The translations under genes were made by a program, and so were the position numbers. From a virus (lineage: Duplodnaviria > Caudoviricetes): a DNA stretch of 56,698 nucleotides. The notes beneath the pieces are model-generated. The model was not told the DNA's origin and did no database searches. It saw nothing but the letters and a program-made list of their open reading frames with translations. Positions 2 to 16,203 of this stretch are shown here, one piece after another (positions within the stretch are counted from its first letter, which is position 1; the number at the start of each line of letters is the position of its first letter). The stretch lies in the IMG/VR virus record IMGVR_UViG_3300044646_000655, positions 1 to 56,698 of that record; one strand, given 5' to 3'.

Positions 2-3000
2 TACGAACAACTAAGTTCTAATCCAGAATTTTCCGCAATGTTTGGAAGTAAGACTGAATTTGAAAACTTCATGACTGAAAATCCAGACGCTAATGATATA
101 TTGAAAGAAGCATTCGATGTCAATCCGATAGAGATGGACTTAAAAAAAAAAGAAGAAACAGAAAGTTTTACTTCTCCATCTCCTTCGGTTGGTCAAACGA
201 TTGAAAATGTCGATGTTGCACCTCAGCCAGTTGCCCAAACGCCCCAATTGGGAGTTCAAGATAACAATATCAATAGGCAGCCGGACCCATACTTAAATAA
301 TTTAAGAAATAGTCTACAGACTCAGATAGAAAAAATTTCTAAAAACCAAAGCCCATTCGGTGCTTTTATGGAGATTCAGAAACTTTCTAAAAGTGCTGAG
401 TACCAAAAGTATAAAAATGCTGGTAAATTAGATGACCTTTTGGGTTCTTTGAATACATCATTCAACGATGTATTCTTACAGAATCCTTCGTATTCAAGTA
501 GTTTTAATACTCCTAACGCCAAAAAGGATTTGGAGAATATTGGTATCACATCAAAGGTATCGGTTGGTAAAGGTCCTGTAAAGACTCCTTTGCAAATGGC
601 CTCAGAACAAACTCAAGCAGATTTAGATTACAAAAGAAAACAAGAAATCGAAGCTAGATTATATAGTGGTGGAGACATTGCTCAAAGAGGTAAACCTGGT
701 TACAGAGTAGAGCAAGAAGCAAAACAAAAAGAAAATGCTGAGAATATTCAAGCACAGATAAAAGCACCCAAAGAGACGTTGTCTCAAGCGTATGCTACTG
801 ACTTTATGGGAAGAAGAGTTGAGAAGTCAGAGAGTAGAATGGAAGAGGCTGATGAGCAAATTCAACCATTGGTAAATGACTTGCGTGACTATGTTTACTT
901 GAATCAACAAAGAGCAACATCTCAAGGTGATCAAGAGTCTGATGAATTCGCTAGGCAAAATTTGGCAAACAAAATTTACGATAAAGTAAAAGATAATATC
1001 GTTCCAGAAATCCTATCTGATTTTAAAGATAACTACGATGATTTAAACAAAGAAGGTGTTTTCTTTAGAAGAGATATCGATGGGTTTGTTGATGTTGATA
1101 ATGGTTATATTGCCGATAAAATAGATAAGTACTTCTTGGGTAAAGAACCAGGAGAAAAAGGATATATTCCAAATACTCCAGAGGGTAATGAGTACAGATA
1201 TCAATTAAGAGGTATTATCGAGGGTCGATTGAGGGCTGAGTATCGGGCTCAGATAGACAAAAGAGTAATAGAAAAAGAGTTAGGTAAATTTAGTGCTTCT
1301 ACAGATGAAAAAGAAGTAGAGAACTCTATACTATTAATTAAAAATGATATTGAATCATCTTTAGAAAATAAACAGATGGAGTTCCAAAAGAACTTAGAGT
1401 CTGAAATAAAAGAAAGAACGAAGTATTTTGCAGAGCAAAAAAGTTTAATTGTTCCAGAAAACTTTGACACACCTGAGCAATATAATTTGGCAGCTCAGAA
1501 CTATAACGATGAACTTGCTGCTTACAATACTGAGGTAACTAATAAAATTGCACAATTTGGCGAAGAGTTTTCCAAGTTTCAAAAACTTAAAAAAGATGAG
1601 TATTCTCAGCGTTTAGATGAATTAGGAACTATTTTTCAAAATAGAACTTCTGAGGAATTTAAAGAATACAATAAAAAAGCATTAGAGGTTCTAAATAAGT
1701 ACAAGCAAAGTCAAGTAGATAAGAATGCATTTGATTTTACTGATGGCAGTAAAATTATGATGCTTGGAGACTTTGTTCAGTCTTCTCTAGCTAACTTTAT
1801 GAGATCATCTCTTGAGATGTCTGGTGTCAAAGATTTAGATATCGGATTCGTCAATAGAACAATTAATGATATGGCCACTTTTGCTAGTGGTAATGCTTAT
1901 GCTGGTAATAGTTTATCAAATGCTCGTTCTTTCTCAGAAGGCTTTGGTGCTTTTGCCCAACAGATGATTGACCAATTACCGACAATTGGTGGTGGTGCAC
2001 TCGCTACTTATTTAACTGGTAATCCTTACTTGGCTAGTACGTTTCTTATGTACACAGATATGGCAAGGGAAAGCGTGTCTGTTAGAGACGAGATTTTAAA
2101 TGGTGGAGGTAGTGTTGCTGATGCTGATCGTGCATCTAAAAGAATAGCACAAGCACATTTAGGTATGATGCCATTCTACTTTGCACAAGGTTCACTCTTG
2201 TTTGGTAATAAGGTTGGTTCTACTGCCTTTTGGAAGAATTACTTAAAAGCAACTCCTCTTGAGTATGGAGTAGAATTAACCCAAGAGATTATACAGCAAT
2301 ATACTAGTGACAAAGAGACAGGTAAATTAACTATACAATCGGTAAATCCAACAACAGGTGAAGTAGAGACAAGGGATAAGACTATGTTGGAGTATTTGGC
2401 TACAACAGGAAAAGATTTAGCAATAGATGTTTTACCTACTGTGGCAACCTTCGGTGGCGTTCAAGCAAGAGGTGAAACTACAAGGGCACTAAAGGTAGAA
2501 AGTGATTATGCAGACGTAAGTAAATTCCTAGGAGACTCTCATCAATTGGATTACTTCAATGATTTGTATTCAGTTATGGGTGAAAATGCTGCGTATGCAC
2601 TTCCTGATATGTTACGTTTTAGAGGTGAAATAACTCAGCAGCAATACGATGACTTAAAGAATAAACTTCCGAACTATATTCAGAAAATCCAAGAGGTACA
2701 AGATGCTGGTATTTTGAATTTAGATGATTCTAGATATTATTTGAATCGTCTACAAGAGAAAGAAATGTTAGAGCAGAAATTAAAAACTGCTCGGACTCAG
2801 ACATCTAAAAACGCAACACAAATCAAACTAGATGAGGTAAATCAAAATATAGATGATGTTATAAAGGGTAAGGAGTTATCTTATACTAAGATTTCATTTG
2901 CCAATGGAATGTCTGTAGTTTTAGACAATAAGCAAGTAGATGGTTATCTCAATAACTTAGAAAACCCTATTGCTAGAGTATTGACTAATGAATTTAGAGA

Positions 3001-6000
3001 TGGTAATGGTAAAGCAAAACCAATTGCTACTTTGCAGACCGATGATGCGAAGTTGAATAAGAAATTAAATAAGTTGTTTGATCTCAAGAAAGAAAGAGAA
3101 GGAGAGCAAACTGTTGAAGGTGTGGACTTAAAAGTAGAAAATAAGATTGACTTTAACAACGATGATAATATTCAAGATATTGCTAAAGAAAACAATTTAG
3201 ATGAGGCTGTTGTTCAGTCTCGATTTAACCAGGCAAAGAATGCTCAAGCTGTTCTAAATGAGAAAATGAGTGGTGTTGAGATAGTTTTGTTAGCAGATAA
3301 AGACTTTAAGGCATTGATGCCTAAGGTTGGAGGAAATGTTAATTCTAATGGAAACTTTGCATACACTTATGATAAAAAGACTAAGAGGTATAAAGCACAG
3401 ATACAAATTAATTTAGATAAATCAAACTCTAGAACTATAAATCACGAGTTAACACACGCCTTGCTTTTACAGAAGTTTGGTGAAGATGTATTGGCATTCC
3501 AAGATTTTCGCCAAGGGTTAACTAAGGTGATGAAGAATAGCGACATAAAAAACTTAGAGGAGTTTACTAGTCAGTATAATGAGTTAGATAAGTTTGAAGA
3601 GTTTATGGCTGAGGCTGCTGGTTTGTTGTCTCAAGAGTACGAGGGTTCGGTCTCAGATCTTAAGAAGAGCAAATTACAAAATATAGCATCTTACATCTCA
3701 AAGTATGTATCTAACTTAACCGGAGGTACTGTTAATCTATTTAGAGATTTAAATAATACCGATGCTGCAATAGAGTTCTTTAATACTTTGTCTCAGAAGA
3801 CAAATGCTACTCAAGAGACTCCTGTAGTAACGCCTGAGACCCAAGAAACCACAGTTACTCCAATGGAGAGTAAGTCTCAGCAAACACCCGAAGTCACTAC
3901 TCAACAAGAACAAATAACACAATCAATATATGAAAACAAACCAAGAAGAGAAATTTCCGACTTTGGAGGAATTTCAGAAGAACAATCCCTTTTACCAACG
4001 AGCGGCAGCAAGATTGGCATTTCGGGAGAAAAGGCGGCTTATGCGGCAAGAAGAGTTAGCACAGGAGAACGAAAAACAGGAAGCGTCCAAGAAGAAATAA
4101 AGGCTTTTAGGGCAATCCAAAGAGGAGAAAAACCCGATGCTGAGTATCTAAGAGAATGGGCCAAGAACAACAACTTTTTTATTGAAAGAAAGGAGTTGGA
4201 CAAAATGATTACCAAAAATAAACTCAAAGAACTTCCAGAAGGTACAGAATCTAGAGTTTTCCTTGGGTCTCAGAAAAACTTTGTTTACAAAATATCGAAT
4301 GGTAGTAAAATGGCTGCTACTTGGAATGATGTTTTCAAGAGAATAGCAGCTCATAATTTCTTGTTTCCTGATACCTCTTATGAGATTATGGGTTTTACCG
4401 ATATAGGTGATAATCTAGGTATGGTATTGAAGCAAGAATATATTCCTCACGAAACAGGATTAAATCAAGATGAGGTTTATGATTTAATGACCGCAAATGG
4501 CTTCGATACCAACCCTAAAGAAAAATGGAGAATGGAGGGTAGGAATAAGACATTAGGAGTTGTAATTGATGATTTACATTCTGGAAACGTAGTTAGGGAC
4601 TTGGATAGAAATCAAGAACCTGCTTTTATTGATCCATATATAACATTTTTACCCGATAGTTATTTAGAAAAACTAATCGAAAAGAATATCGATGAGGAAT
4701 TTTCAAAAGATACTGAATTAGAAAGTATCGCAATAAAGACAACAACACCACAAGAAGAAATAACTCCTACAGAAACGATTGAAGAAGCAGGAGAAATGAA
4801 TGAAGGGACAAAACCTTTTATTGAACAACCTATCGAAATAGATGTTGACATCTTAAGCAAATCTCAGTTGGGCCAAGAAATTAATATACCTTCAGAACAA
4901 TTATTAGGAGGTAAACAAGTAGATGTAATTGCCGAACTAAGAAAATTTAAAGAAGACAATGGTAGAAATCCAAAAGTTTGGTTTTGGATGGCTGATCAAT
5001 TAAAAAGAGGGATGTATGAAAACCCAAAAACTGGTGTTACACATTTCTTAGAGGGTGGTTATAATTTTGCTAATGACCCTAAAAATGTTGAAAATGAAGA
5101 AATTTGGGCAACTGGTTTAGATGAGAAATTATTAAATACAAGACTTCCTGCTACAGATTTTATTTGGTTAATGGCTGGGTCTCCGAATACATCTTTTAAC
5201 TTTTCTAAAGGTACAAGTAAAGCATTAGTCAAAGAAATTGAAGCAGGTCTTAAAAACAATATAGGGAAGACAATAGAAGGTGTATCGATAAATAATGGAA
5301 CATTTGATGAGTTTGTAAAAATTGCTGAAAAAATGCTACCATCAAATGTTAAGAAATGGGATAGTTTTTTAAGTGCAATCAAAAATCCTAATATGATTGA
5401 AACTTCTGCAAGAAAAACATTCGCAGAAACATTACTTCACGAGGGTGGCGATAAAAAAATTACATTACCATTTCAGCAATTTGTACATCAAGAGTTAGGT
5501 GTCCCCACTTTAAAAGAATTTTTACCACTAGTTAGAGAACCATTTCTGATTGAAAATGATTTCAAAAATGGAGATATGGGTATTTTACTTAAACCTAATG
5601 GTAAAGTAAAATTCAATAGTGGCTCACACGATACTTATCAAAATGCTATTTTAGGGGAGGTTGTTGGTTTCCCAAATAGAAAAATAAATGTAAAAGAAGT
5701 TTTACCTAAAAAAGCATTAGAGGTTATTTCGAAAGAAACTAATCTGCCTTTGGAAAAACCAAGTGAGCCAGCAATTATCAAAACTGCTGTTGGTGATTTG
5801 GGTAAGGTTTATGCGGCAGAGGATTTGAATACTTTTTTAAGTAAATCTCAGAAAGTTCGTTCGGAAAAATCTAGTGGTACAACTCAAGTCGCTACTACTA
5901 CTGGCTCTTATATAAAAGCTGCTAATTTAATTAAGGACATCCAAGGGGACGTTTTGGACTATGGGGCAGGATTGGGTCTCGGAACAGACGCAATGTCAAA

Positions 6001-9000
6001 TACTCTAGGACGTAAGGTAGATTCATTTGAACCTAATCCTGAAAGATGGCAAGGTAAAGAAGAAGCAACATTTACTAGTTCTGAAGATATAAATAAAAAA
6101 TACGATGGTATTGTTTCTTTAAATGTATTAAATGTTGTACCTAAAGATATCAGAGACGCAATCGTTACAGACATCTATGAGAAGTTAAATGTTGGCGGTA
6201 AGGCAGTAATTAGCACAAGAGGGTGGAATGGTGATGTCAAAGCGGCTAAGAATGCTGTTCTTGGTCCAGAAGAAAAAAGTCTTATTATAACTAGAAAACA
6301 AGGCGGTAAAGATGTAGAAGTATTTCAAAAAGGTTTCGATGGTAATGAATTAGTTGATTATGTTAAAGAGTTATTGGGTGATAAAGTAAATGTCGTTAAA
6401 AATAATACTTTTGGAAAAAGTGGTGTTATTATTACTAAGCAGCAAGAGTTCACTTCTAAATCACAACTAGATGCCAATCAGATTAATGCTGAGTTCAATC
6501 AAATAACTAATCAAGGTGGTTCGGTCTCAGATGCATTAGATAATCTTATTGACATGGGCTATGGTAAGAAAGACATCCAAGAACAACTTGGTAAGAATAC
6601 AATAAGTGATGACTTTTATAACCAAAGAATAACTCAAAAAGGATTCGAAGCATTTGAGAAAATCAGAGATACTTTTGCAGATAGAAAAACCAATCTAATA
6701 ACAGAGATTGAAAATATGTCCGGGATGGACATTGCAGATATTAGAGCAGACCTAAAGCAGAACGGATACAATGACGTAGAAATATTCAATGCGATGGTTA
6801 GTGGTGACTTTGCACTTAATGAAGATTTAGAAAATGTTTTCGGTGCTGAGTTTAGAAAGACTATCGCCAATCTTTTCGAAAGAGAGGGTGAAGTTGCTAA
6901 TTTAGAGTTCTTAGAAGACTTGACTGAAGAAGGTAGAGCATTAAAATCTACTCATAAATTAGGAGATATTGCAGGAATGTTCCAAGAGTCTGGTTTGGTG
7001 TTCGCAGATGCCTCTGTGATGATTGAGTATCTGATGAGTCAAATGGCATTGCCAACAGAAGTAGCGGCCAAAGAAATGCGTAGACAACTAGGTGAATTAC
7101 TTGATAAGTTAAAACAAGCACCTGGAATGTTCGAAAAAGAGGTCGAACTGAAAGAAGACTTGTTGAGATATTCTAATCTTTTGAGTTTCGCAGGTAGAAT
7201 ATTGGCTACAGGTCGTAACCTATTCCCTAAGTCTATGGCTTCTCTAATAGAGCAAAGTTTGGCTAAAGAGGGAATTGTCTTGACTCAGAAACAAAAAGAA
7301 ACACTTGCAGGTCTTGTTGCTGATTTTAATACTGCTACGGCTACAGAAAAGCAAGCACAAACTGAACTAAACAATGGAGACTTGTCTGACCAGGCTTTTC
7401 AAGCGTATCAAGCAGCACAGAAAAACTTAGGTTTGGCAAATGTTCGCCTTATGCAGTTCTTGAATAATAGAAAGCCAACATATTGGAATGAGGTATTAAC
7501 CTCTGGTGGTAGTAGAGGTTTGTTAAATTTAAGTACTGTTGTGTTGAGTATAACTTCGAACATAGAAAACTTATTGTATAGTTCATACGACCCAAATGGT
7601 ATTGCGATCAGAAAACTCAGAGATAGTTTTAAGGATGGAATAGCAGGAAATACTCTTAGCTTTAACAATTGGCGTTTGGCTTATTCTTTATCTAGAAGAA
7701 ATTCATTGAATGAAATGAATTTAATGGCTAAGTATGGTGCATTGGGTTCGGTTTCAGATAAAAACTTCGATAGTTTTGGTACTGTAAACTTCTTCCGTGA
7801 GCCTCAAATTGTTTACAAATGGGTTATTACTCAGATGGAAAAATTGTCAGGAAAACAAGCAGCAAATATGACTGACGAAGAGTTTGTAGATGCTATGGAC
7901 TTAACCTTACAAAGAATGAACAATCAAGCAGATCCGAAAGTAAGAAGTGGTAAAACTTATAATATTGCTAAAGCAATGTTTATGAGCACTTTGGGTATTG
8001 GCTCGCAAGTTACAGAAGGTGTCGGACGTACTATGGCATATGGTGGTGATATACTTTTTGGAAAGTTGGCTGCAACAAGAGCAATGCTTGACTACTTTAG
8101 CAATATAAACAATGAGAAATTCTCTCAAGGTTTATTTGAAAACTTTTTAGACGGTAAAAAAGACTTAAGTAAAGAGTCAATGCGTTCTATGATATCTATT
8201 ATGTCTACTTATGCAGAATTAAATTCTAAATTCGAACAAGCTGGTTTGAAGAGAGTATTTATGAATGACAATGGAGTAAGTAAGATGATTGGTAAGGGTA
8301 GAATGGGACTGAAGCAGAAAGTTCGTCAACTTGGGGCTCAGATTAACAAAGGCGAGGAGAAGAAATTATCACTTGCCGCTGTTAAAAAACAAGCATACCA
8401 AGTTGGTGATGTTGCATTTTGGACTCTTATGCCATTTATAAAAGTTCCTACTAACTTCTTGGGTTCTGCAATAAGTAAAACTGTTCCTTTTGTATCGATG
8501 CCTAAATATGTATTTAAGGAGTTTTCATATAGAAGAGAACTAGCTGAATTCAATAAAAAATATCCAGAAGGTAAAAAAATATCTGATAATAAGAAAAAAG
8601 CCTATGAGACAGCAAAAGTAGATTTATTCTTGAAGAAAAGGGATTTGAATAATAGTGCTGCTGAGGTTATAACTAGTATTGAGTTGAGCGTTATATCAAT
8701 GATGGCTTATGCTTCTGGTGCTTTATTGACCGGAGGTTCTCCAGAAAAAGAAAAAGAACTCAAGAAAAACGGATTAAAGGGTAACTCAATAAATTGGAGT
8801 TTGTTCTCTGAATTTATTGCTGCCGCCTTGAGGAATGAAGACTTGAAGAATTTCGCAGTTAAGAGAGGCGGTGTAGTTAAAAAAGGTGATAAAGTAATGT
8901 CTCTTGGTAACGCTGGTTTTATGGGGTATTCTATGGGGCTTTGGGGTTCTGTTTTAGACTCTGTAAAAGAAGGTAAAAATTCTAATATAGTAGAGGTAAT

Positions 9001-10039
9001 GAATCCAGAGAGTGGTATCATAGGTGTTATGATGTATCAGATGTTTGGAAATGGTGTACAAAACCTACCGATGTTACAAGGTGTTGCTCGTGTTGGACAG
9101 TTACTCAAGGAAGATAAATCTGAAAACAAATTTGAAGAATTTACTAGTGGTACATTGAGTACTTCTTTGGCTACTTTTTTCCCTTCGTTTGGTTCATTTA
9201 AAAGCAAAGCAGAGGCAGAGAATATTCAAACCATAAGTGATATAAATACACAATCAGAAGAGTTTAATTTACCTACTTCACTTGGTAGAGTTTCATTGGG
9301 TGTAGTTCAAAAGTTAAGTCGAAATGTTCCTTTTGATGCTGGCTATAATCCATATTACAAGGCCGCAATAGGTATCATGGGAGAGGACTTAAGCAATAGA
9401 GTTACTTTTTCAGAACCTGGCAGTTGGGAGTCTTATGTAGAGGCCATGTTTAACCCATTCCAATTTAGAAGGTGGTCTCCGGGTCTCAGAGAAAATGAAG
9501 ATTCTAGATTATACGAACACTCTACATTCATACAGAGTAATTTAATCAAGTATGCTGAAATGTATAAACTAATAACAGGTAGAACCTATGATTATACATA
9601 CGAAGGTAAAACTTCAGATTTCTACACTATGATGACTATGCCTGTTAAGAATGAATTAGAGTACGATGGAACAGGTATTGTCACAAAGTATTCTGATGTC
9701 AACACACCAAATAAGTTTAAATACTCTTTGCCTAATGATTTGTATCGTGAAGAACTAAGAAAAAGAGGTGAGATTATGTTCTCGAATACTCAGAATCTAA
9801 GAAATGTATTTGAAAATTTAAACGCAAGTATAAAGTTCAATGCATTCTTAGATAATACGGAACTAGTCAAAGATGATATAGTCAAGGCTTTTGAAGCCTA
9901 CAGAGCTAATATTCAAGCGGCAAATGATGGGTGGAAGAGTGACTATACAACCAATAGAGAGAAGAAATATCTCAAGATTATGTATGACAGAGGTGTTATA
10001 GATGCTGAACCTTTAAAGAGAGTCGGAATTTTGGAATAA
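2..10039 (+). CDS. Giant (>3333 aa) virion/ejected polyvalent protein, probably 5'-truncated: zincin metallopeptidase + kinase-like domain + unknown domain + SAM methyltransferase + helical C-terminal region
   Basis: Frame is open from nt 2 (YEQLSSNPEFSAM...), so the start may lie outside the window. HELTH (3443-3457) followed by EEFMAE; kinase motifs GTESRV/VYKI/HNFLFPDTSY/DLHSGNV/FIDP (4241-4640); VLDYGAGLG..FEP..YDGIVSLNVLNVV (5950-6140). Confidence 0.8.
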   Translation, partial: YEQLSSNPEFSAMFGSKTEFENFMTENPDANDILKEAFDVNPIEMDLKKKEETESFTSPSPSVGQTIENVDVAPQPVAQTPQLGVQDNNINRQPDPYLNNLRNSLQTQIEKISKNQSPFGAFMEIQKLSKSAEYQKYKNAGKLDDLLGSLNTSFNDVFLQNPSYSSSFNTPNAKKDLENIGITSKVSVGKGPVKTPLQMASEQTQADLDYKRKQEIEARLYSGGDIAQRGKPGYRVEQEAKQKENAENIQAQIKAPKETLSQAYATDFMGRRVEKSESRMEEADEQIQPLVNDLRDYVYLNQQRATSQGDQESDEFARQNLANKIYDKVKDNIVPEILSDFKDNYDDLNKEGVFFRRDIDGFVDVDNGYIADKIDKYFLGKEPGEKGYIPNTPEGNEYRYQLRGIIEGRLRAEYRAQIDKRVIEKELGKFSASTDEKEVENSILLIKNDIESSLENKQMEFQKNLESEIKERTKYFAEQKSLIVPENFDTPEQYNLAAQNYNDELAAYNTEVTNKIAQFGEEFSKFQKLKKDEYSQRLDELGTIFQNRTSEEFKEYNKKALEVLNKYKQSQVDKNAFDFTDGSKIMMLGDFVQSSLANFMRSSLEMSGVKDLDIGFVNRTINDMATFASGNAYAGNSLSNARSFSEGFGAFAQQMIDQLPTIGGGALATYLTGNPYLASTFLMYTDMARESVSVRDEILNGGGSVADADRASKRIAQAHLGMMPFYFAQGSLLFGNKVGSTAFWKNYLKATPLEYGVELTQEIIQQYTSDKETGKLTIQSVNPTTGEVETRDKTMLEYLATTGKDLAIDVLPTVATFGGVQARGETTRALKVESDYADVSKFLGDSHQLDYFNDLYSVMGENAAYALPDMLRFRGEITQQQYDDLKNKLPNYIQKIQEVQDAGILNLDDSRYYLNRLQEKEMLEQKLKTARTQTSKNATQIKLDEVNQNIDDVIKGKELSYTKISFANGMSVVLDNKQVDGYLNNLENPIARVLTNEFRDGNGKAKPIATLQTDDAKLNKKLNKLFDLKKEREGEQTVEGVDLKVENKIDFNNDDNIQDIAKENNLDEAVVQSRFNQAKNAQAVLNEKMSGVEIVLLADKDFKALMPKVGGNVNSNGNFAYTYDKKTKRYKAQIQINLDKSNSRTINHELTHALLLQKFGEDVLAFQDFRQGLTKVMKNSDIKNLEEFTSQYNELDKFEEFMAEAAGLLSQEYEGSVSDLKKSKLQNIASYISKYVSNLTGGTVNLFRDLNNTDAAIEFFNTLSQKTNATQETPVVTPETQETTVTPMESKSQQTPEVTTQQEQITQSIYENKPRREISDFGGISEEQSLLPTSGSKIGISGEKAAYAARRVSTGERKTGSVQEEIKAFRAIQRGEKPDAEYLREWAKNNNFFIERKELDKMITKNKLKELPEGTESRVFLGSQKNFVYKISNGSKMAATWNDVFKRIAAHNFLFPDTSYEIMGFTDIGDNLGMVLKQEYIPHETGLNQDEVYDLMTANGFDTNPKEKWRMEGRNKTLGVVIDDLHSGNVVRDLDRNQEPAFIDPYITFLPDSYLEKLIEKNIDEEFSKDTELESIAIKTTTPQEEITPTETIEEAGEMNEGTKPFIEQPIEIDVDILSKSQLGQEINIPSEQLLGGKQVDVIAELRKFKEDNGRNPKVWFWMADQLKRGMYENPKTGVTHFLEGGYNFANDPKNVENEEIWATGLDEKLLNTRLPATDFIWLMAGSPNTSFNFSKGTSKALVKEIEAGLKNNIGKTIEGVSINNGTFDEFVKIAEKMLPSNVKKWDSFLSAIKNPNMIETSARKTFAETLLHEGGDKKITLPFQQFVHQELGVPTLKEFLPLVREPFLIENDFKNGDMGILLKPNGKVKFNSGSHDTYQNAILGEVVGFPNRKINVKEVLPKKALEVISKETNLPLEKPSEPAIIKTAVGDLGKVYAAEDLNTFLSKSQKVRSEKSSGTTQVATTTGSYIKAANLIKDIQGDVLDYGAGLGLGTDAMSNTLGRKVDSFEPNPERWQGKEEATFTSSEDINKKYDGIVSLNVLNVVPKDIRDAIVTDIYEKLNVGGKAVISTRGWNGDVKAAKNAVLGPEEKSLIITRKQGGKDVEVFQKGFDGNELVDYVKELLGDKVNVVKNNTFGKSGVIITKQQEFTSKSQLDANQINAEFNQITNQGGSVSDALDNLIDMGYGKKDIQEQLGKNTISDDFYNQRITQKGFEAFEKIRDTFADRKTNLITEIENMSGMDIADIRADLKQNGYNDVEIFNAMVSGDFALNEDLENVFGAEFRKTIANLFEREGEVANLEFLEDLTEEGRALKSTHKLGDIAGMFQESGLVFADASVMIEYLMSQMALPTEVAAKEMRRQLGELLDKLKQAPGMFEKEVELKEDLLRYSNLLSFAGRILATGRNLFPKSMASLIEQSLAKEGIVLTQKQKETLAGLVADFNTATATEKQAQTELNNGDLSDQAFQAYQAAQKNLGLANVRLMQFLNNRKPTYWNEVLTSGGSRGLLNLSTVVLSITSNIENLLYSSYDPNGIAIRKLRDSFKDGIAGNTLSFNNWRLAYSLSRRNSLNEMNLMAKYGALGSVSDKNFDSFGTVNFFREPQIVYKWVITQMEKLSGKQAANMTDEEFVDAMDLTLQRMNNQADPKVRSGKTYNIAKAMFMSTLGIGSQVTEGVGRTMAYGGDILFGKLAATRAMLDYFSNINNEKFSQGLFENFLDGKKDLSKESMRSMISIMSTYAELNSKFEQAGLKRVFMNDNGVSKMIGKGRMGLKQKVRQLGAQINKGEEKKLSLAAVKKQAYQVGDVAFWTLMPFIKVPTNFLGSAISKTVPFVSMPKYVFKEFSYRRELAEFNKKYPEGKKISDNKKKAYETAKVDLFLKKRDLNNSAAEVITSIELSVISMMAYASGALLTGGSPEKEKELKKNGLKGNSINWSLFSEFIAAALRNEDLKNFAVKRGGVVKKGDKVMSLGNAGFMGYSMGLWGSVLDSVKEGKNSNIVEVMNPESGIIGVMMYQMFGNGVQNLPMLQGVARVGQLLKEDKSENKFEEFTSGTLSTSLATFFPSFGSFKSKAEAENIQTISDINTQSEEFNLPTSLGRVSLGVVQKLSRNVPFDAGYNPYYKAAIGIMGEDLSNRVTFSEPGSWESYVEAMFNPFQFRRWSPGLRENEDSRLYEHSTFIQSNLIKYAEMYKLITGRTYDYTYEGKTSDFYTMMTMPVKNELEYDGTGIVTKYSDVNTPNKFKYSLPNDLYREELRKRGEIMFSNTQNLRNVFENLNASIKFNAFLDNTELVKDDIVKAFEAYRANIQAANDGWKSDYTTNREKKYLKIMYDRGVIDAEPLKRVGILE

Positions 10040-10045
10040 TTTTCG

Positions 10046-10053
10046 TAAATTTG
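10046..10053 (+). promoter_or_regulatory. Bacteroidota-type -7 promoter element TAAATTTG
   Basis: Matches TAnnTTTG; intergenic; 4 nt before ATG 10058. Confidence 0.6.
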
Positions 10054-10057
10054 AGAT

Positions 10058-10627
10058 ATGCCACTAGAATTAAAAATAGGTATTATAAATAACTCAGACA
10101 ATATCATTATAACTGATGATACTGGGGATTATAATGCCATTACTAATCCAGGAGGTTGGGGCTCACTAAATCCAGCCCATACTACACCATCTCCGGTTTC
10201 TGCTTTATCATTAGACATATATTTACCTGGAAGTACTACTTCTATAGGTGCTTCTAATCTTTTGGGAACAACCTTTTTCACTAGTACAGATCGAGCATAC
10301 AATTTGTTTACTGACCCATCAACTGTTGTTCCGACATTTATATTGCAAGATGGAGTATGGAAGTTCGTTACTACTTTTACAATTAGTAGCATACAATATG
10401 TAATTACAAAGTATGCACTTCGTACAAATGAAATTCGTTGTCAAATTGCAAAATTGGCATTGGGTGACATGGATACCAATAACTACGAAGAGGCAAAAAC
10501 TTTGTATGACAAAATGATTCAAGCATTTGAGTGTGAAGAATACATTCTTGCCCAAGATTTATATGAGGAAATCAATGATTTCTTTACTGATTGCTCTCCA
10601 TACTCAATTAATTCTTGTGGCTGCTAA
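10058..10627 (+). CDS. Putative virion structural protein
   Basis: DDTGDYNAITNPGGWG N-terminus, beta-rich, Cys-rich C-terminus; in structural module. Confidence 0.55.
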   Translation: MPLELKIGIINNSDNIIITDDTGDYNAITNPGGWGSLNPAHTTPSPVSALSLDIYLPGSTTSIGASNLLGTTFFTSTDRAYNLFTDPSTVVPTFILQDGVWKFVTTFTISSIQYVITKYALRTNEIRCQIAKLALGDMDTNNYEEAKTLYDKMIQAFECEEYILAQDLYEEINDFFTDCSPYSINSCGC

Positions 10628-11013
10628 TGACTTTTGCTACTCTATATAGTTACATTGGAACTTACTTAGCGGTTCGTAAGGCTATCGTAGAAACTGAGGC
10701 CAAAATAGAAAATGCTAAGAAGTATGACAAGCCTTGTTGTGACCTAGAAAAAAGTCAGAAGAAAGGTTTGTTTTTATTGTGGTGCTTAGAAAATATCAAT
10801 TGCTACGAGGATCAAACAGATAGATTCCTTTCTGTAGCAAACAGATGGAGTAGAAATTGTGGGGATTGCAGCGTTTCACAAGCAGAAATAGATGCATTCT
10901 TATTGACAGAAAAAGGTGATGAACTAACTTACATTTCGGGTCTCAGCGGATATCTTTTGACTCAAAATGGAACTTGGTTATTACAACAAAACGGATATCA
11001 AATTATATTATAA
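10627..11013 (+). CDS. Hypothetical structural protein
   Basis: TAATG coupling gives start 10627; Cys-rich; C-terminal LLTQNG repeats. Confidence 0.55.
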   Translation: MTFATLYSYIGTYLAVRKAIVETEAKIENAKKYDKPCCDLEKSQKKGLFLLWCLENINCYEDQTDRFLSVANRWSRNCGDCSVSQAEIDAFLLTEKGDELTYISGLSGYLLTQNGTWLLQQNGYQIIL

Positions 11014-11714
11014 TGGCATTTAAACCAGAAAGAACAAGTGAACTTGACGAACTATTATTAGCGGATTTATCGCCCGATGATGAATATATTATTGTCGATA
11101 AATCAGATACTGCACAGGGAAAAACTAAAAAGATTAAGCATTCTACGTTACTTGCTGCTTTTGGTGGTGTCCCTACAACAGACGCTGGGGATTTGGTTAC
11201 TGGTACTTTGTCTGATGCTCGTTTGAGTGTCAATGTGACTAGACAAGGAAATACATTTAATGGTGCTAACCAATTAGTTAGATTAAGTGCACTTGCTAAA
11301 TATCCATCTAATGATGGTTCTGAAATCACCAACTTAAATGCTTCAAACATCGCAAGTGGAGAGATAAACGACAATAGAATACCATCAACAGTAGCAAGAA
11401 CAAGAAGGATTATTACTCCTCTTAATACGGCTACCGGTGTTTCCCTTACTGACGCACAGACAAATCATATTTTCAGAGTTGCTCATGTAACAGGAACTGT
11501 TGTATTTAATTTAGAACCAACAATAACTCCAGGTGCATTCTTTACAATTTGTACAATGAGCGTAGGTGATGTTCAGATAAGTAGTGCTAGTGGTTTGATT
11601 ATTCAACCATCTGCTACAGGTAACGTGTCTCTTCCTGGAAGAATTACTGGAGGAAGAAGGATTGAGATTGTATGCTTAGAACCTAACGTGTTTATTGTAT
11701 CAGGAGACATATGA
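11013..11714 (+). CDS. Putative tail fibre/structural protein
   Basis: TAATG coupling; SGTL/ASNIASG-type fibre repeats. Confidence 0.55.
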   Translation: MAFKPERTSELDELLLADLSPDDEYIIVDKSDTAQGKTKKIKHSTLLAAFGGVPTTDAGDLVTGTLSDARLSVNVTRQGNTFNGANQLVRLSALAKYPSNDGSEITNLNASNIASGEINDNRIPSTVARTRRIITPLNTATGVSLTDAQTNHIFRVAHVTGTVVFNLEPTITPGAFFTICTMSVGDVQISSASGLIIQPSATGNVSLPGRITGGRRIEIVCLEPNVFIVSGDI

Positions 11715-12361
11715 TAAAACTAGAAGACTTAAATATCCAAATGCATCTTTTGCCTGACAATCAATATGTTAAGCAAGAGACAACCAAGAAGCAAATTTAT
11801 TTGCATCATACTGTCGGAGGCCCAAGTGGTGAAAACACTATTGATATTTGGGAGAGAGACGCTGTTAAGATTGGAACATCTGTTTGTATTTCTAGAGATG
11901 GAACAATCGTTCAGGCTTTTTCATCCAAGTATTGGGCATTCCATTTAGGTTTGAAAGAGGGTGTGTTTGAAAAACATGGTCTTCCTTACATTTCATTAGA
12001 TAAGATTTCTTTGGGTATCGAGTTGTGTTCCTATGGTCCATTAAAATTTGAAGGAGGTAGATATAAAACTGTCTATGGTCAATTCATTAAGGATGAGGAA
12101 GTTACACAATTAGATAAAGAATTTAGAGGATCTAAATATTGGCATAAGTATACAGATGCTCAGATTGAAAGTACTCGTAAGTTACTTTTATTCTGGGGTC
12201 AGAAATTTAACATCCCTTTGGCTTACGATGAGAAGATTTGGGATGTGTACACTAAGGCTTTGATGGGAGAACCAGGAGTTTACTCTCACGTTAGTGTTCG
12301 CTACGACAAGAGTGATGTGTTTCCTCAACCAGAGCTAATTGCAATGCTTAAGACTTTATAA
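11711..12361 (+). CDS. N-acetylmuramoyl-L-alanine amidase (Amidase_2) endolysin
   Basis: IYLHHT, WAFHLG, SLGIELC, YTDAQI, HVSVRYDKSD zinc-amidase motifs. Confidence 0.85.
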   Translation: MIKLEDLNIQMHLLPDNQYVKQETTKKQIYLHHTVGGPSGENTIDIWERDAVKIGTSVCISRDGTIVQAFSSKYWAFHLGLKEGVFEKHGLPYISLDKISLGIELCSYGPLKFEGGRYKTVYGQFIKDEEVTQLDKEFRGSKYWHKYTDAQIESTRKLLLFWGQKFNIPLAYDEKIWDVYTKALMGEPGVYSHVSVRYDKSDVFPQPELIAMLKTL

Positions 12362-13647
12362 TGGCGTTTGATGTTACGAGACAAGAACTATTAAAACAAG
12401 CCAACGACCTATTAAGGTTGTTTCAGCAGACTCGTGACAAAAAATATAAAGACGAAGAAATAAGACTCAGACGAATTGTTACTGAGTTAGAGGCTACAGA
12501 TATAAGTGGGTCTCAGAGCCTTGATGACTTAACTGATGTTGCTATAAGTGCTCCTGCCAATGCTCAAGTACTAACCTACAACTCAACCACATCACAATGG
12601 GAAAACCAAACTCCTGGAGGAGGTGGTGGTGGAGGTGATATGTACAAAAGTACATACGATGTTGACAATAGCGGTATTGTAGATAAGGCTGAGGCCTTAA
12701 TGACCATAGGAAGAAACTCTACAGGAGCTACACTTTATAAAGGTACGATTGTACGAATTCAAGGTTCTACAGGAAATAGACCAAACTTTGTAAAAGCACA
12801 AGGAAACAACGATGCTAATTCTGCACAGACTTTTGGGGTAGTCGTGACAAATATGCCTAACAATACAGATGGCTATGTTTTGGTTCAAGGGACTATTCAC
12901 GACTTAGATACTAGATCAGGAGCAACACATCCCTTTACAGACGTTACTCTAGCAGATGGAGACTTGCTTTATCTTCACCCTACAATTGCAGGCTATGTAA
13001 CCAATATTAAACCTTTAGCTCCTCAGCACTTGGTTTATGTAGGAGTGGTAACTCGAACCTCTCCTACCAACGGAACTATAGTTTATAGAGTTCAAAATGG
13101 TTATGAGTTGTATGAATTACACGATGTGTCCATAAATTCTCCTACGGATGGACAAGTATTAAAATTCAACGCAGCTCTTAACCTTTGGCAAAATGCAAGC
13201 GGTGCAAATTTTTTATATACAAAGACTATAGTTGCTTACAGAACAACTAACCAACCAAGCGGTACTACTATGAATTTAAGTACAAATGGTACTGGAGTTA
13301 GTGGATTGATTGGACCAACAACAGCTAATGCTACCTGGAACGTAACTATAGATACAATAGCAACTGTTATTGGTATTACAGGAGACGTTACAGGCGTTGT
13401 TATTGGTGATACATATTCTGAAACAACAAGATTGGTGTTCAAAAAGGTAAGTGGTATTTCAACTCTTGTTGCTATTGTTTCATCAGAGGCAGGTTTTGAT
13501 AGTTCTATGACAACAGCATTGATGAACTACTCTGTCGGGGGGACTCAGAACTTGAACTTGCAATTCCAATTCCCTACCTTTGTAGGAACAGGATTAATTC
13601 AAATAAACGCAATAAGTAAACTAGAAATAGTGGAGGTAACATACTAA
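12361..13647 (+). CDS. Tail fibre protein
   Basis: LDDLTDV/LHDV..GQVL repeats, poly-Gly hinge, GDMYKSTYD motif. Confidence 0.65.
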   Translation: MAFDVTRQELLKQANDLLRLFQQTRDKKYKDEEIRLRRIVTELEATDISGSQSLDDLTDVAISAPANAQVLTYNSTTSQWENQTPGGGGGGGDMYKSTYDVDNSGIVDKAEALMTIGRNSTGATLYKGTIVRIQGSTGNRPNFVKAQGNNDANSAQTFGVVVTNMPNNTDGYVLVQGTIHDLDTRSGATHPFTDVTLADGDLLYLHPTIAGYVTNIKPLAPQHLVYVGVVTRTSPTNGTIVYRVQNGYELYELHDVSINSPTDGQVLKFNAALNLWQNASGANFLYTKTIVAYRTTNQPSGTTMNLSTNGTGVSGLIGPTTANATWNVTIDTIATVIGITGDVTGVVIGDTYSETTRLVFKKVSGISTLVAIVSSEAGFDSSMTTALMNYSVGGTQNLNLQFQFPTFVGTGLIQINAISKLEIVEVTY

Positions 13648-14048
13648 TGGGACAGAGACATAAACTATATGGACAGCTAGAAGTTGAAGGCCAAATGCAA
13701 GTTGGTGGTGAGATGGACGTTGCTGGTCAGATGAATGTCGGTGGTGCATTGGTTGTTACTGATGACACTACTACGAATCTACCTAGTGGTACAACAGGAA
13801 GTCTTGTTTACTACAACCTTGCTACTGGTCAACTTACTTATGGTGGCCCACCACCTGCTCTAGAAAAGGAATTGAGACAAGATTTTGTGTCTCCTTACTC
13901 TTATTGTGGTAAGGCAGATGCTGGGGCCTCAGAATCATCAAATGTATGGCTTGTAACAAGAATACAGATACTAGATGACGGAACAACAACTGTTACAACA
14001 GCAAATAACGTAAACTGGACAAATAGATACACACATATATACTCATGA
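13647..14048 (+). CDS. Tail fibre-associated hypothetical protein
   Basis: GQL/GQM V repeats; YSYCGKA..W..RI..W.NR motif; coupled ORF. Confidence 0.5.
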   Translation: MGQRHKLYGQLEVEGQMQVGGEMDVAGQMNVGGALVVTDDTTTNLPSGTTGSLVYYNLATGQLTYGGPPPALEKELRQDFVSPYSYCGKADAGASESSNVWLVTRIQILDDGTTTVTTANNVNWTNRYTHIYS

Positions 14049-14338
14049 AATTAATATCTAAAAAACCAACAATAAAAGATGGCGTAGAATATCCTTACTT
14101 GGCAGTTAGTCTTTCTATGTCACCTCTTTGGAAGCCAAACTTAGGTGCTTCTGTAGCAATTCGCTTTACTCCATTTAGAGAGTTACAAGACGGAACTTAT
14201 GAGTCTTTACCTGATGAACCTAAAGCAATTTCTCTTTTAGACATATTTGAAACTGCACAAGGAGATCCTGCTTTTGAAGATGCTATTCAAGGTATGTTAA
14301 AGACTTTGCAAGATTTAGTAGATAAGAAGGAGTTGTAA
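14045..14338 (+). CDS. Hypothetical protein (possible fibre chaperone)
   Basis: Coupled ORF in tail module. Confidence 0.5.
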   Translation: MKLISKKPTIKDGVEYPYLAVSLSMSPLWKPNLGASVAIRFTPFRELQDGTYESLPDEPKAISLLDIFETAQGDPAFEDAIQGMLKTLQDLVDKKEL

Positions 14339-16203
14339 TGCCACTACCAAGACTTAGAGCAGCAGTAGCAAATGGGGATTGGAATAATCCTTCAACATGG
14401 AATGATGGAGTAGTTCCTAATTCTTTAAACGATGTAGTAGCTTTAAATAACTTTAACGTAACTGTAAATCAAGATATTAATATATATCAATTAACAAATT
14501 TTCAGTTATTTTATACTAGTTATAACTCGTTTGCTCTAATGACATCTAATACGGATCCAGCAGGAAAAGCCGAAAGTTCTTTTAACGATTTTAGAAGTTT
14601 TTATCCTTTTTCTTTAAGTGGAACTACTGTTGACGTAGATACAACTCTTGCGAATCCTTTGTGGTATTCTTATGAATATCCAAATCAAGAACTTGTAGTA
14701 ATTAATAGATATTCTTTTGGTACTGTAGGCAACCATGTTTTAGATCCTAAAGACTGGAAATTACAGGGATGGAATGCTACTACTCAGTTATGGCAAGATT
14801 TAGATTCACAAGTAAATCAAACTACTTATGGAAGTACTTATTTAAGTGGTATTTTAACAAATACTGTAGCTTATTCTAAATATCGAATTATTATATTTCA
14901 AGTAAGAAATGGATATGGATCTTGCAGAATGCAAAACATTCGTTTTTATGAAAAAAATACTTATTACGGAACAGCTACTTCACCAAGAGGTACAGCAGAT
15001 GTAAATGCTTCTAGAAATATTACTATAGGAGCAGGTAATTTACGATGTGCAAATTTTCATACTTTAATGAGATTTAGTTCGCCTTTAGGAAGTGTAATTA
15101 ATTTTAATGGTAAAATAGAACCTCCTTCTGCAAGTTCAGCTACAATTCATACAGTAGAAATAACAGGATCGGGTACATATAATTTTACAGGTGAGTTAGT
15201 AGTGGGTTTAAATTATTCTGGCCAAGGTGCAAATACAATCAGAATTAGTCAAGCGTGTACTTTAAATTTTTATGGTAATGTTTATGGAAATGGAACACAA
15301 GGTAATACTACAGGAGCTATTCTTATTGCAGCATCGGGATCAACTGTAAATATATTTGGAGATGTAGAAGGAGGTAATGGTCTTAATGATGGGGCAATTG
15401 TTGTAAATAGTGCTAGTAATTTAAATGTTTATGGTAATGTCTACGGAACAAGACCAAGCAGTATTCAATATGGAACCGTAGGAATAATCTGTTATAACAG
15501 TGGAGCAAATATACTTATAGTTGGTAATGTAGTGGCTTCATCAGTTATAGGTACTGGGGGACAAGGAGTTCGTTCTGGTATGATAGTAAATAATGCAAAT
15601 CGTGTTGAAATAACAGGAAATATAATTGCTGGTACATTTTACATAACTAATCCAAGTCAAAGATTTTATGGATTATTTATAGGGTCTGTTACAACACTAA
15701 GTATAATTGGAACTATACAAGCTTCTCAAAGAGAATCTGGATTAATTAGCTCTGCTACTCCAATAAATTTTGAACAGTTTTCATATAATTATCAATTATC
15801 TGGTCCTTTTATTTCTGGTCCTACAGGAATACTTCCTTTTAGGGCATCTAGTTTTAAACTAATTTCAAATATTGGTAATTACTATCAGTTTAGAGATTTA
15901 AATCTTAATTCTACGTCTATGGTCTCTCCTAATACTATGGTTGACGTACCTTCTCCTCAAAATGTTAGACAAGGAACTTCTTATGGAAGTGGAAACTATG
16001 TAGGTTCTTTAGCTGTTCCTCCTACGAATAGAGTATCATTAGGCATTCCAGTAGATAACACCGTAGGTACAGCAGTACTAACAGCAGATGATGTATGGAA
16101 TGCACAAACAAGTGCAATGAATACAGCTGGATCCATAGGAAAGCGTTTAAAGAATGCTGCTACTGTAGATAGTACCGGAGATCAATTATCGGCATTATTA
16201 TAA
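14338..16203 (+). CDS. Tail fibre/spike with discoidin (F5/8C)-like domain and beta-helix-like region
   Basis: NGDWNNPSTW start; PKDWKLQG..W..LD..Y.KYRI discoidin-like motif; G/N/T/I-rich repeats. Confidence 0.6.
   Translation: MPLPRLRAAVANGDWNNPSTWNDGVVPNSLNDVVALNNFNVTVNQDINIYQLTNFQLFYTSYNSFALMTSNTDPAGKAESSFNDFRSFYPFSLSGTTVDVDTTLANPLWYSYEYPNQELVVINRYSFGTVGNHVLDPKDWKLQGWNATTQLWQDLDSQVNQTTYGSTYLSGILTNTVAYSKYRIIIFQVRNGYGSCRMQNIRFYEKNTYYGTATSPRGTADVNASRNITIGAGNLRCANFHTLMRFSSPLGSVINFNGKIEPPSASSATIHTVEITGSGTYNFTGELVVGLNYSGQGANTIRISQACTLNFYGNVYGNGTQGNTTGAILIAASGSTVNIFGDVEGGNGLNDGAIVVNSASNLNVYGNVYGTRPSSIQYGTVGIICYNSGANILIVGNVVASSVIGTGGQGVRSGMIVNNANRVEITGNIIAGTFYITNPSQRFYGLFIGSVTTLSIIGTIQASQRESGLISSATPINFEQFSYNYQLSGPFISGPTGILPFRASSFKLISNIGNYYQFRDLNLNSTSMVSPNTMVDVPSPQNVRQGTSYGSGNYVGSLAVPPTNRVSLGIPVDNTVGTAVLTADDVWNAQTSAMNTAGSIGKRLKNAATVDSTGDQLSALL

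Follow-up and report, generated by a model that had tools for sequence, protein, structure and literature searches.

Why does one tetrapeptide recur at every module boundary of a giant phage protein? The question is raised by a gene in the IMG/VR virus record IMGVR_UViG_3300044646_000655 (Duplodnaviria; Caudoviricetes), positions 1 to 56,698 of which, 56,698 nucleotides (nt), form the window analyzed here. The record is viral, linear and 83% complete. A single open reading frame (ORF) of 3333 codons occupies 38..10039 on the + strand, and its reading frame has no stop as far upstream as nt 2. The IMG/VR contig L001, which is 99% identical, shows the ORF starting 23 nt upstream of the window (L001 5745-15806; 3353 amino acids (aa)). 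The true start therefore probably lies 23 nt before the window, and the aa numbering from ATG 38 that is used throughout is about 20 residues short of the likely true protein. A preliminary description of this DNA had reported the word SKSQ four times in the protein, each time at a module boundary behind a zincin protease, and had taken it as the recognition site at which the zincin releases separate enzymes after injection, making the protein a processed, swappable anti-host effector array. The results below favor a narrower form of that proposal: the junction peptides are, with a probability of roughly 55%, processing sites of a phage polyprotein that are cut by its embedded zincin. Proteins are cited by P numbers and loci by L numbers. 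The protein divides as follows, the two frames being those kept in a core family of homologues.

38..3127, + strand: N-terminal conserved frame (N-frame), aa 1-1030; from jackhmmer in the core family; no Pfam match
3128..3790, + strand: zincin-like metallopeptidase domain, aa 1031-1251; from HExxH, alignment and AlphaFold2 (AF2)
3791..3868, + strand: P/T/E-rich linker after the zincin, aa 1252-1277; low AF2 predicted local distance difference test (pLDDT) values
3869..3880, + strand: junction motif 1, ME-SKSQ-QT, aa 1278-1281; in a disordered linker
3881..4855, + strand: module 1, consisting of linker, Kinase-PolyVal and P/E/T-rich linker, aa 1282-1606; PF18762
4856..4867, + strand: junction motif 2, IL-SKSQ-LG, aa 1607-1610
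4868..5839, + strand: module 2, a single globular domain with no assigned family, aa 1611-1934; AF2
5840..5851, + strand: junction motif 3, FL-SKSQ-KV, aa 1935-1938; aligns with SRQQ in L002
5852..6454, + strand: module 3, a class I S-adenosylmethionine (SAM)-dependent methyltransferase, aa 1939-2139; PF13489
6455..6466, + strand: junction motif 4, FT-SKSQ-LD, aa 2140-2143; directly before the C-frame
6467..10036, + strand: C-terminal conserved frame (C-frame), aa 2144-3333; kept in the core family

Translation of 38..10039 places SKSQ exactly where it had been reported, at aa 1278, 1607, 1935 and 2140 (nt 3869, 4856, 5840 and 6455), with HELTH from aa 1136 (nt 3443) and EEFMAE from aa 1187. 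Each of the four junctions between zincin, Kinase-PolyVal, module 2, methyltransferase and C-frame carries one copy. The three modules had been described as kinase-like, an approximately 330-aa segment of no family, and a SAM-dependent methyltransferase, and are borne out as such by PF18762, by the absence of a Pfam match and by PF13489, respectively; the comparison with the polyvalent proteins of Iyer et al. 2017 likewise holds, as zincin, Kinase-PolyVal and methyltransferase are found in one giant ORF. Composition predicts 0.064 copies of SKSQ in the protein, against the four seen, all of them inside 866 aa. The remaining three six-frame occurrences in the window lie in frames of only 25, 14 and 61 codons, and no copy was found in the other real ORFs of the window, L001, L002 and L004. 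Some 4-mer does reach four copies in 19 of 500 shuffles of the protein, as would be expected if a tetrapeptide recurred by chance in a long K/S/Q-rich sequence. However, chance recurrence is refuted by the homologues, dozens of which, down to about 35% identity, keep the motif at the same junctions, and we give it practically no credence.

A search over the whole length of the protein scored 8000 candidates and yielded 84 giant proteins. With jackhmmer on 87 collected proteins, 27 (query included) were found to have N-frame, zincin and C-frame in common, and are referred to here as the core family. Between zincin and C-frame, these proteins contain 80 KSQ tripeptides, against 5.3 expected from composition, while N-frame plus zincin have 3 (11.3 expected) and the C-frame has 2 (8.4 expected). 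The central copies are uniform in context: in 76 of the 80, the K is preceded by S, N or T, and the position three residues ahead of it is occupied by F, V, I, L, M, P, A or T. In 26 of the 27 proteins, the C-frame match is preceded, at a distance of 1 to 8 residues, by the end of the last central K[SA]Q. A logo of 108 non-redundant sites reads hydrophobic-x-[S/N/T]-K-S-Q, followed by L, K, I, V or Q; the conserved part is about six residues, and the linkers around it are otherwise unalike. When the proteins were cut at the motif and segments of at least 100 aa were clustered, with alignments covering at least 60% of the longer segment, 12 module families were obtained, the methyltransferase being present in 23 of the 27 proteins. 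Each core protein has 1-3 modules of at least 100 aa, and their order varies, with the methyltransferase preceding the kinase in P0018 and P0021. Pfam searches with six further members found only methyltransferase families, in two of the six (P0019 and P0016), plus a sub-threshold DUF3319 in P0003, so by this measure most module families in the core set appear to lack a known Pfam family.

Outside the core family, the junction word changes from lineage to lineage. The giant protein of L002 (3004 aa) has a zincin 28% and a methyltransferase 66% identical to those of the window, and its methyltransferase is flanked by S-RQQ-K and G-RQQ-K in place of SKSQ; RQQ occurs four times in this protein, always between aa 1206 and 1826. 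The comparison was extended to 57 non-redundant methyltransferase-bearing giant proteins by taking the longest word common to both 21-residue flanks of the methyltransferase within each protein. The words found are listed below.

SKSQ, NKSQ or TKSQ: core family
GKAQ: P0015
PKRQGI, next to [A/S]KAQ: P0035
TRAQK: P0038 and P0041
RQQK(I): L002, P0037, P0039, P0044 and P0045
PQFQK: P0049 and P0050
LPVSKSQ: P0032 and P0033

The Q is constant across all of these words. The mean shared flank word is 3.35 residues within a protein, compared with 2.33 when flanks are paired between proteins. A shared word of at least four residues is seen in 26 of 39 proteins that have this zincin, but in only 2 of 18 without it (Fisher p 1.3e-4, which is only indicative given the relatedness of the rows). 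Of the 13 zincin-bearing misses, several have a methyltransferase subtype with an N-terminal extension, in which the site lies beyond the 21-residue flank.

The enrichment behind the zincin is also seen on a broader scale. The zincin profile matches 1394 representatives at E <= 0.001, 937 at 1e-10 and 237 at 1e-30, and most among the 150 matches listed are 2000-4900 aa long. In 176 zincin-bearing proteins of more than 1500 aa, K[SA]Q occurs at 0.44-1.00 per 1000 aa before the zincin end, at 1.78, 2.25, 2.10 and 1.58 in the four successive 250-aa bins after it, and at 0.30-0.73 beyond; the controls KSE, KSN and ESQ do not rise after the zincin. Without a prior motif, SKS (34 of 141 representatives) and KSQ (31 of 141) lead the list of 3-mers that recur three or more times within 1000 aa downstream of the zincin, while neither is repeated before it in any of the 141. 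As judged from sequence, the finding thus marks a widespread architecture of frame, predicted zincin, modules each preceded by a junction word, and frame. Some zincin-bearing giant proteins (P0098, P0122, P0132, P0174 and P0218) have long tandem arrays of short peptides, for example SLTT nine times, ISLP 12 times, YENG seven times and TSRG seven times.

The zincin itself looks intact, with the signature of HExxH plus Glu kept, and peptidase activity is predicted. In a 19-sequence alignment, H1136, E1137 and H1140 (nt 3443-3457) and N1125 do not vary, and Y1180 and E1188 (nt 3599), the latter being the putative third zinc ligand, are conserved to at least 90%. The AF2 model based on this alignment averages pLDDT 71.5, with 81-97 in its first 120 residues, and comprises a helix at 26-46, strands at 51-55, 75-82 and 87-95, and a helix at 103-119 (segment numbering); HExxH and the downstream Glu sit on helices 103-119 and 156-169. 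This topology of an N-terminal helix, three strands and active-site helices matches the zincin description in the accessible part of Iyer et al. (PMC5512222). In a wide VIA comparison, whole-domain matches are the lethal factor N-domain (Z 6.0, root-mean-square deviation (rmsd) 4.2, 150 aligned), PPEP-2 (Z 5.7) and PPEP-3 (Z 5.2), and collagenases, YbeY and SprT are matched as well. The Z range for zincin folds, 4.5-6.0, is middling and under the tool's clear level, and part of the model is matched with similar scores by bromodomain helical bundles; motif and topology are therefore the basis on which the fold is assigned. Foldseek against PDB with the model gave nothing at E <= 0.001, and a PDB profile search with the alignment nothing significant. 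Across the alignment members, Pfam found only Reprolysin_3, in 2 of 19 (E 0.0094), and the Pfam model MPTase was without a match in scans of the giant protein and the zincin members. The modeled fold resembles, at Z 5-6, the site-specific endopeptidases of lethal factor and PPEP type.

The position of the motif relative to folded domains was assessed with AF2 models of the zincin and module 2, and the sites fall at domain edges or in disordered linkers. Site 1 is in a stretch with pLDDT mostly below 50 (aa 1252-1300, segment 222-270); sites 2 and 3 bracket module 2, which is folded from its first residue. Site 4 is five residues past the methyltransferase match. A complex of Zn, zincin residues 1-240 and 40 residues of linker around site 2 was predicted with a score of 0.03 against a mark of 0.32, and was counted neither way. 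Directly after the zincin, seven proteins (P0005, P0008, P0009, P0011, P0013, P0017 and P0018) share a second linker word, (N/D)AVQEQT(T/A)(G/S)QVPVQPE, the counterpart of which in the window (about 3770-3868) is diverged, NATQETPVVTPETQE, and also holds Q-ending triplets. This second word might be a candidate C-terminal release site of the zincin itself.

It had also been suggested that modules are gained or lost at the motif, with shared junction DNA as microhomology for the exchange. In six close pairs of proteins, breakpoints are mostly near sites, but not exactly on them. Module 1 is swapped for an unrelated segment in the 95%-identical P0003, and the P0001/P0003 breakpoints are 8 residues after site 1 and 36 before site 2. 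Breakpoints are 16-17 residues after one site and 5 before the next in P0009/P0014, and 2 after and 14 before in P0025/P0029, in which a 12-residue junction stretch aligns on both sides of the insert. The right-hand breakpoints of P0022/P0023 and P0012/P0016 are 8 and 11 residues before a site. The exception is P0007/P0011, where the swap is within a module, 58 residues after and 84 before the sites. In this pair (P0007 aa 1289-1469, P0011 aa 1276-1566), families M1 (approximately 465 aa) and M2 (the module 2 of the window) differ in the middle only, having their first ~58 and last ~84 residues in common, which suggests that a putative barrel was retained and an inserted subdomain exchanged.

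The DNA part of the suggestion is not supported. The four junction words are AGTAAGTCTCAG, AGCAAATCTCAG, AGTAAATCTCAG and TCTAAATCACAA; the pattern AG(T/C)AA(A/G)TCTCAG does fit three of the four, as described, but no two sites are identical over 12 nt. The site codons are mostly the common ones of the gene (TCT 38% and AGT 28% of Ser codons), and CAG at three of four sites, with a CAG share of 28% in the gene, has a chance probability of about 0.07. With the 12-nt words differing, codons common and breakpoints mostly 1-30 residues from a site, DNA microhomology was rejected. The four sites differ by synonymous codons, and selection would therefore be at the peptide level.

According to the mechanism proposed here, the ORF would encode a giant virion cargo polyprotein of a crass-like podovirus, laid out as a fixed N-frame ending in a site-specific zincin, a variable array of one to four enzyme or binding modules, and a fixed C-frame. 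The zincin would cut at hydrophobic-x-[S/N/T]-K-S-Q, in cis or between copies, probably after the conserved Q, and would so free the N-frame with the zincin, each module, and the C-frame as separate proteins. We infer the cutting of the sites, the enzyme, the bond and the timing (in the capsid or after ejection) alike. What stands of the swappable array is thus a conserved delimiter of mobile modules behind a zincin, while cutting, the agency of the zincin, action after injection and an anti-host role stay conjectural. The embedded zincin is favored as the enzyme for three reasons. No peptidase family is found among 61 other ORFs (59 in the window and two in L001; Pfam E <= 1e-4, 18 families), only a glucosaminidase and an amidase. 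The motif is missing from the remaining real ORFs of the window, L001, L002 and L004. P0024 contains three KSQ sites but lacks HExxH; it probably represents a truncated call, since the 93%-identical L010 has a full 3544-codon frame with HExxH. No HExxH is present in P0030 and P0035.

Several observations weigh against this reading. The first of the sites behind the zincin is missing from P0004, and the counterpart in P0021 of a KSQ in P0018 is KGQ (aa 1829 in both, at the junction before the C-frame). KSQ is scarce in the frames of the 27 core proteins (5 seen, 19.7 expected), but in a wider 50%-identity set the frames have 18 against 25.2 expected and control tripeptides behave alike; because it is not specific there, avoidance in the frames is not used as support. 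Any xxQ word at least three times after the zincin is seen in only 63 of the 141 representatives, and in gp18 of Elemovirus, a cultured Flavobacterium phage genus, the zincin is present without an evident repeated word. Recognition by zincins is usually of the P1' side of the site, whereas the conserved residues here are mostly N-terminal of the Q. As zincin and motif are both inherited with the frame, their association cannot separate a cis-acting protease from common descent. A protease could also lie in the absent part of the 83%-complete record. A tblastn search of the phage collection with the C-frame gave no match, and thus no cultured member with a C-frame; the literature search, which left supplementary tables outside it, found no proteomics on family members.

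If the sites are cut by another protease, this would be a phage enzyme (in the unsequenced part or unrecognizable by sequence) or a host protease acting after ejection. The incompleteness of the record leaves room for the former, as does the lack of a family for most ORFs (18 Pfam families among 61), and conserved P-side residues ending in Q are the pattern of chymotrypsin-like viral proteases, not of zincins. However, the peptidase families missing from the other 61 ORFs speak against such an enzyme, and a head-maturation protease usually cuts several virion proteins, so that the absence of the motif from the other real ORFs of the window, L001, L002 and L004 counts against another phage protease. 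The word moreover changes between clades along with the zincin-carrying polyprotein, and a host protease fails to explain clade-specific words in phages of probably related hosts. Processing by an enzyme other than the embedded zincin is on balance improbable.

A stronger contender, still unlikely but well ahead of a foreign protease, is that the motif is not cut at all, serving as a capping or hinge sequence or as a docking peptide for packaging or ejection, or being the scar of linker-plus-module exchange homogenized within the gene. Cleavage is, after all, something that we infer; the breakpoints of the six pairs fall in linkers near sites, with linkers and motifs traveling with the modules, and the likeness of the flanks within one protein could result from gene conversion among its linkers. 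Iyer et al. (PMC5512222, in the part available) state that the zincin-bearing virion RNA polymerase of bacteriophage N4 is packaged without processing. On the other hand, sites within the gene share at most approximately 9 to 14 nt, with synonymous differences, and are a poor substrate for conversion, and only about six residues are conserved in linkers that are otherwise unalike. The Q is kept across KSQ, KAQ, RQQ, RAQ and QFQ, as expected of a specificity residue, and the motif also precedes the C-frame, which is fixed and not exchanged.

The modules that would be released by the zincin are of different kinds. In module 1, Kinase-PolyVal PF18762 is matched at aa 1367-1535 (nt 4136-4642) with E 2.7e-32 and 112 bits (cut-off 27) in the whole-protein scan, and with E 4e-34 and 118 bits (cut-off 27) when the module is scanned alone. 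Module 2 and its alignment members have no Pfam match. Its AF2 model (13 sequences) is one globular domain (pLDDT 86, predicted template modeling score (pTM) 0.82) that is ordered from residue 1; toward its end, over 14 residues, pLDDT drops to 68 and then 56. Foldseek against PDB with this model gave nothing at E <= 0.001, and a PDB profile search with the alignment nothing useful. In the wide VIA comparison, the top 20 rows are mostly YTH, ASCH, EVE/THYN1, McrB-N or VcaM4I-type domains, the best match being 4u8t_A (Z 7.4, rmsd 3.6, 134 aligned). Module 2 is tentatively modeled as a PUA-like (YTH/ASCH/EVE) barrel with a helical insert, the signal being consistent but middling. Only two stand-alone relatives were found. 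Its invariant residues include W40, D43, Q44, L45, G104-S105-P106, K242-P243-x-G245 and H254-x-T256-Y257 (module numbering), among others. The model resembles modified-base readers of the YTH/ASCH/EVE type, and the module adjoins the methyltransferase.

Methyltransf_23 (PF13489) is matched inside aa 1939-2139 (E 3.2e-07, 30.6 bits, cut-off 27), and relatives of this module are found in Roseobacter, Microcystis, Pelagibacter and Mycobacterium phages. In Roseobacter phage CRP-738 (L007 8449-10956) it lies within an 835-aa protein two genes after the portal gene, and in Microcystis phage MJing1 (L008 8908-9603) it is a stand-alone 231-aa protein in a block of structural genes; from this placement, the methyltransferase module would therefore be a recurrent head-associated cargo domain. 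The N-frame and C-frame of the giant protein have no Pfam match, and blastn of nt 3000-7000 against phages gave nothing useful.

The genes around the giant ORF bear on its role. The record encodes a terminase, ribonucleotide reductase, tail proteins, an amidase, a portal protein, a DNA polymerase (family A-like) and a primase-helicase, with a weak match to an SU10-type capsid protein; amidase and tail proteins are downstream of the giant gene. In L001, a homologue of the Crassvirus muzzle protein (3-3200; PF25731, E 3.8e-34) is followed by ORFs of 365 and 470 aa and then by the giant ORF, at 5745-15806, and the same order of gene sizes around the giant ORF is seen in L010 and L011. The muzzle homologue sits in a phage genome of only about 60 kb. 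The cargo proteins of crAss001 are encoded by genes that directly follow the muzzle gene (Bayfield et al. 2023, PMC10172136, in the part available). With the giant gene downstream of a muzzle homologue, as in the crAss001 layout, its product would therefore be a virion cargo protein by position. General Pfam and PHROG scans of the giant protein found no crass cargo family, no direct comparison with crAss001 gp45-gp50 having been made. A DFDxD-type polymerase motif is absent from the giant protein, and its identity as an RNA polymerase polyprotein was accordingly rejected. For the neighbors in L002 and L004, PHROGs gave nothing informative.

The same gene order is found in Elemovirus, where it ends in a 3694-aa 'structural protein' that carries this zincin; the zincin of gp18 is 31.5% identical over 146 aa. 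The family phrog_18548 is shared with a 1470-aa virion protein of Elemovirus (L009 581-4993). A literature search for an Elemovirus virion proteome found no paper.

Parallels in general plan come from other systems. In potyviruses (NIa) and picornaviruses (3C), the virus's own protease cuts an RNA-virus polyprotein at a virus-specific site ending in Gln. As in those polyproteins, one protease, many junctions, a lineage-specific word and a constant Q are seen here; unlike them, in which chymotrypsin-like cysteine or serine enzymes act on replication polyproteins, the present case would pair a zincin with DNA-phage virion cargo. MARTX toxins carry exchangeable effector arrays that are freed by an internal cysteine protease domain after delivery. 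A fixed frame, an exchangeable array and a built-in protease are common to both, but MARTX is a bacterial secreted toxin with a cysteine protease, and the likeness is one of layout, with no sequence relation claimed.

Closer to hand are the polyvalent proteins, for which Iyer et al. 2017 (PMC5512222, in the part available, as for all statements on this source) proposed that the zincin processes them before packaging, inside the head or after injection, citing processed P1 DdrB and DarA and the unprocessed N4 polymerase. The window protein resembles them in being a giant multidomain protein in a late/virion gene context with Kinase-PolyVal, a methyltransferase and an HExxH zincin, and lethal factor, a structural relative of the polyvalent-protein MPTase, is also one of the zincin here (PMC5512222). 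It has several unrelated domains in one giant viral polypeptide, including PF18762, in a virion gene neighborhood, as polyvalent proteins do, and also the marks of a polyprotein, namely the same short peptide at every junction and sites between folded domains (by sequence and AF2). Unlike in the polyvalent proteins, for which that part of the source names no site or junction motif (PMC5512222), there is a defined, co-varying junction peptide and a plan of frame, array and frame. DdrB and DarA of P1, head proteins for which processing precedes packaging, are similar in being virion-delivered anti-restriction proteins, one of them with a C-terminal zincin and proteolytically processed (PMC5512222), but differ in that these are single processing events with no repeated junction motif reported; the likeness is by description (PMC5512222).

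Fused polyproteins of crass-like phages were described as 'likely cleaved into individual components' (Drobysheva et al. 2020 preprint, 10.1101/2020.03.07.982082, in the part available). The giant zincin-bearing gene downstream of a muzzle homologue is like Crassvirus cargo (PMC10172136, in the part available), but the absence of DFDxD, a genome of approximately 57-68 kb rather than ~100 kb, and a family A-like DNA polymerase set it apart from the Crassvirus cargo/RNA polymerase polyprotein. The available parts of the two crass-like sources (10.1101/2020.03.07.982082 and PMC10172136) give no cleavage motif, unlike the defined word found here. A literature search for a defined cleavage motif in polyvalent or crass-like giant proteins, with supplementary tables outside its reach, found none. 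Self-processing of polyvalent proteins has thus been proposed since 2017, and what is new here, as far as the accessible parts of these sources go, is the junction word with its site and boundary rule.

A co-varying junction peptide turns the proposal of zincin self-processing into a direct experiment, and the word is a rule for dividing giant phage proteins into functional units. Such a rule matters for finding injected anti-defense or takeover enzymes, which here are mostly without a known family. A wider form of the hypothesis is that of a large family of phage cargo polyproteins in which the zincin of each lineage reads its own Gln-ending word and frees lineage-specific injected enzymes; this we put forward tentatively, at slightly less than even odds. 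If such a lineage-specific code exists, the words would give exact boundaries for many uncharacterized injected modules, and the array would be a natural plug-in scaffold for protein delivery into bacteria. Should the pairs of protease and site prove lineage-specific, phages would have a counterpart to the polyprotein processing of RNA viruses, and the pairs would be a possible source of orthogonal site-specific metalloproteases.

Elsewhere in the window, ORFs encode a C-5 cytosine DNA methylase (E 1.8e-42), a YqaJ recombinase, RusA, an HNH endonuclease and a DnaA C-terminal helix-turn-helix domain. A serine recombinase is also present (Resolvase E 7e-38, plus Recombinase), which hints at a temperate lifestyle or one involving site-specific recombination.

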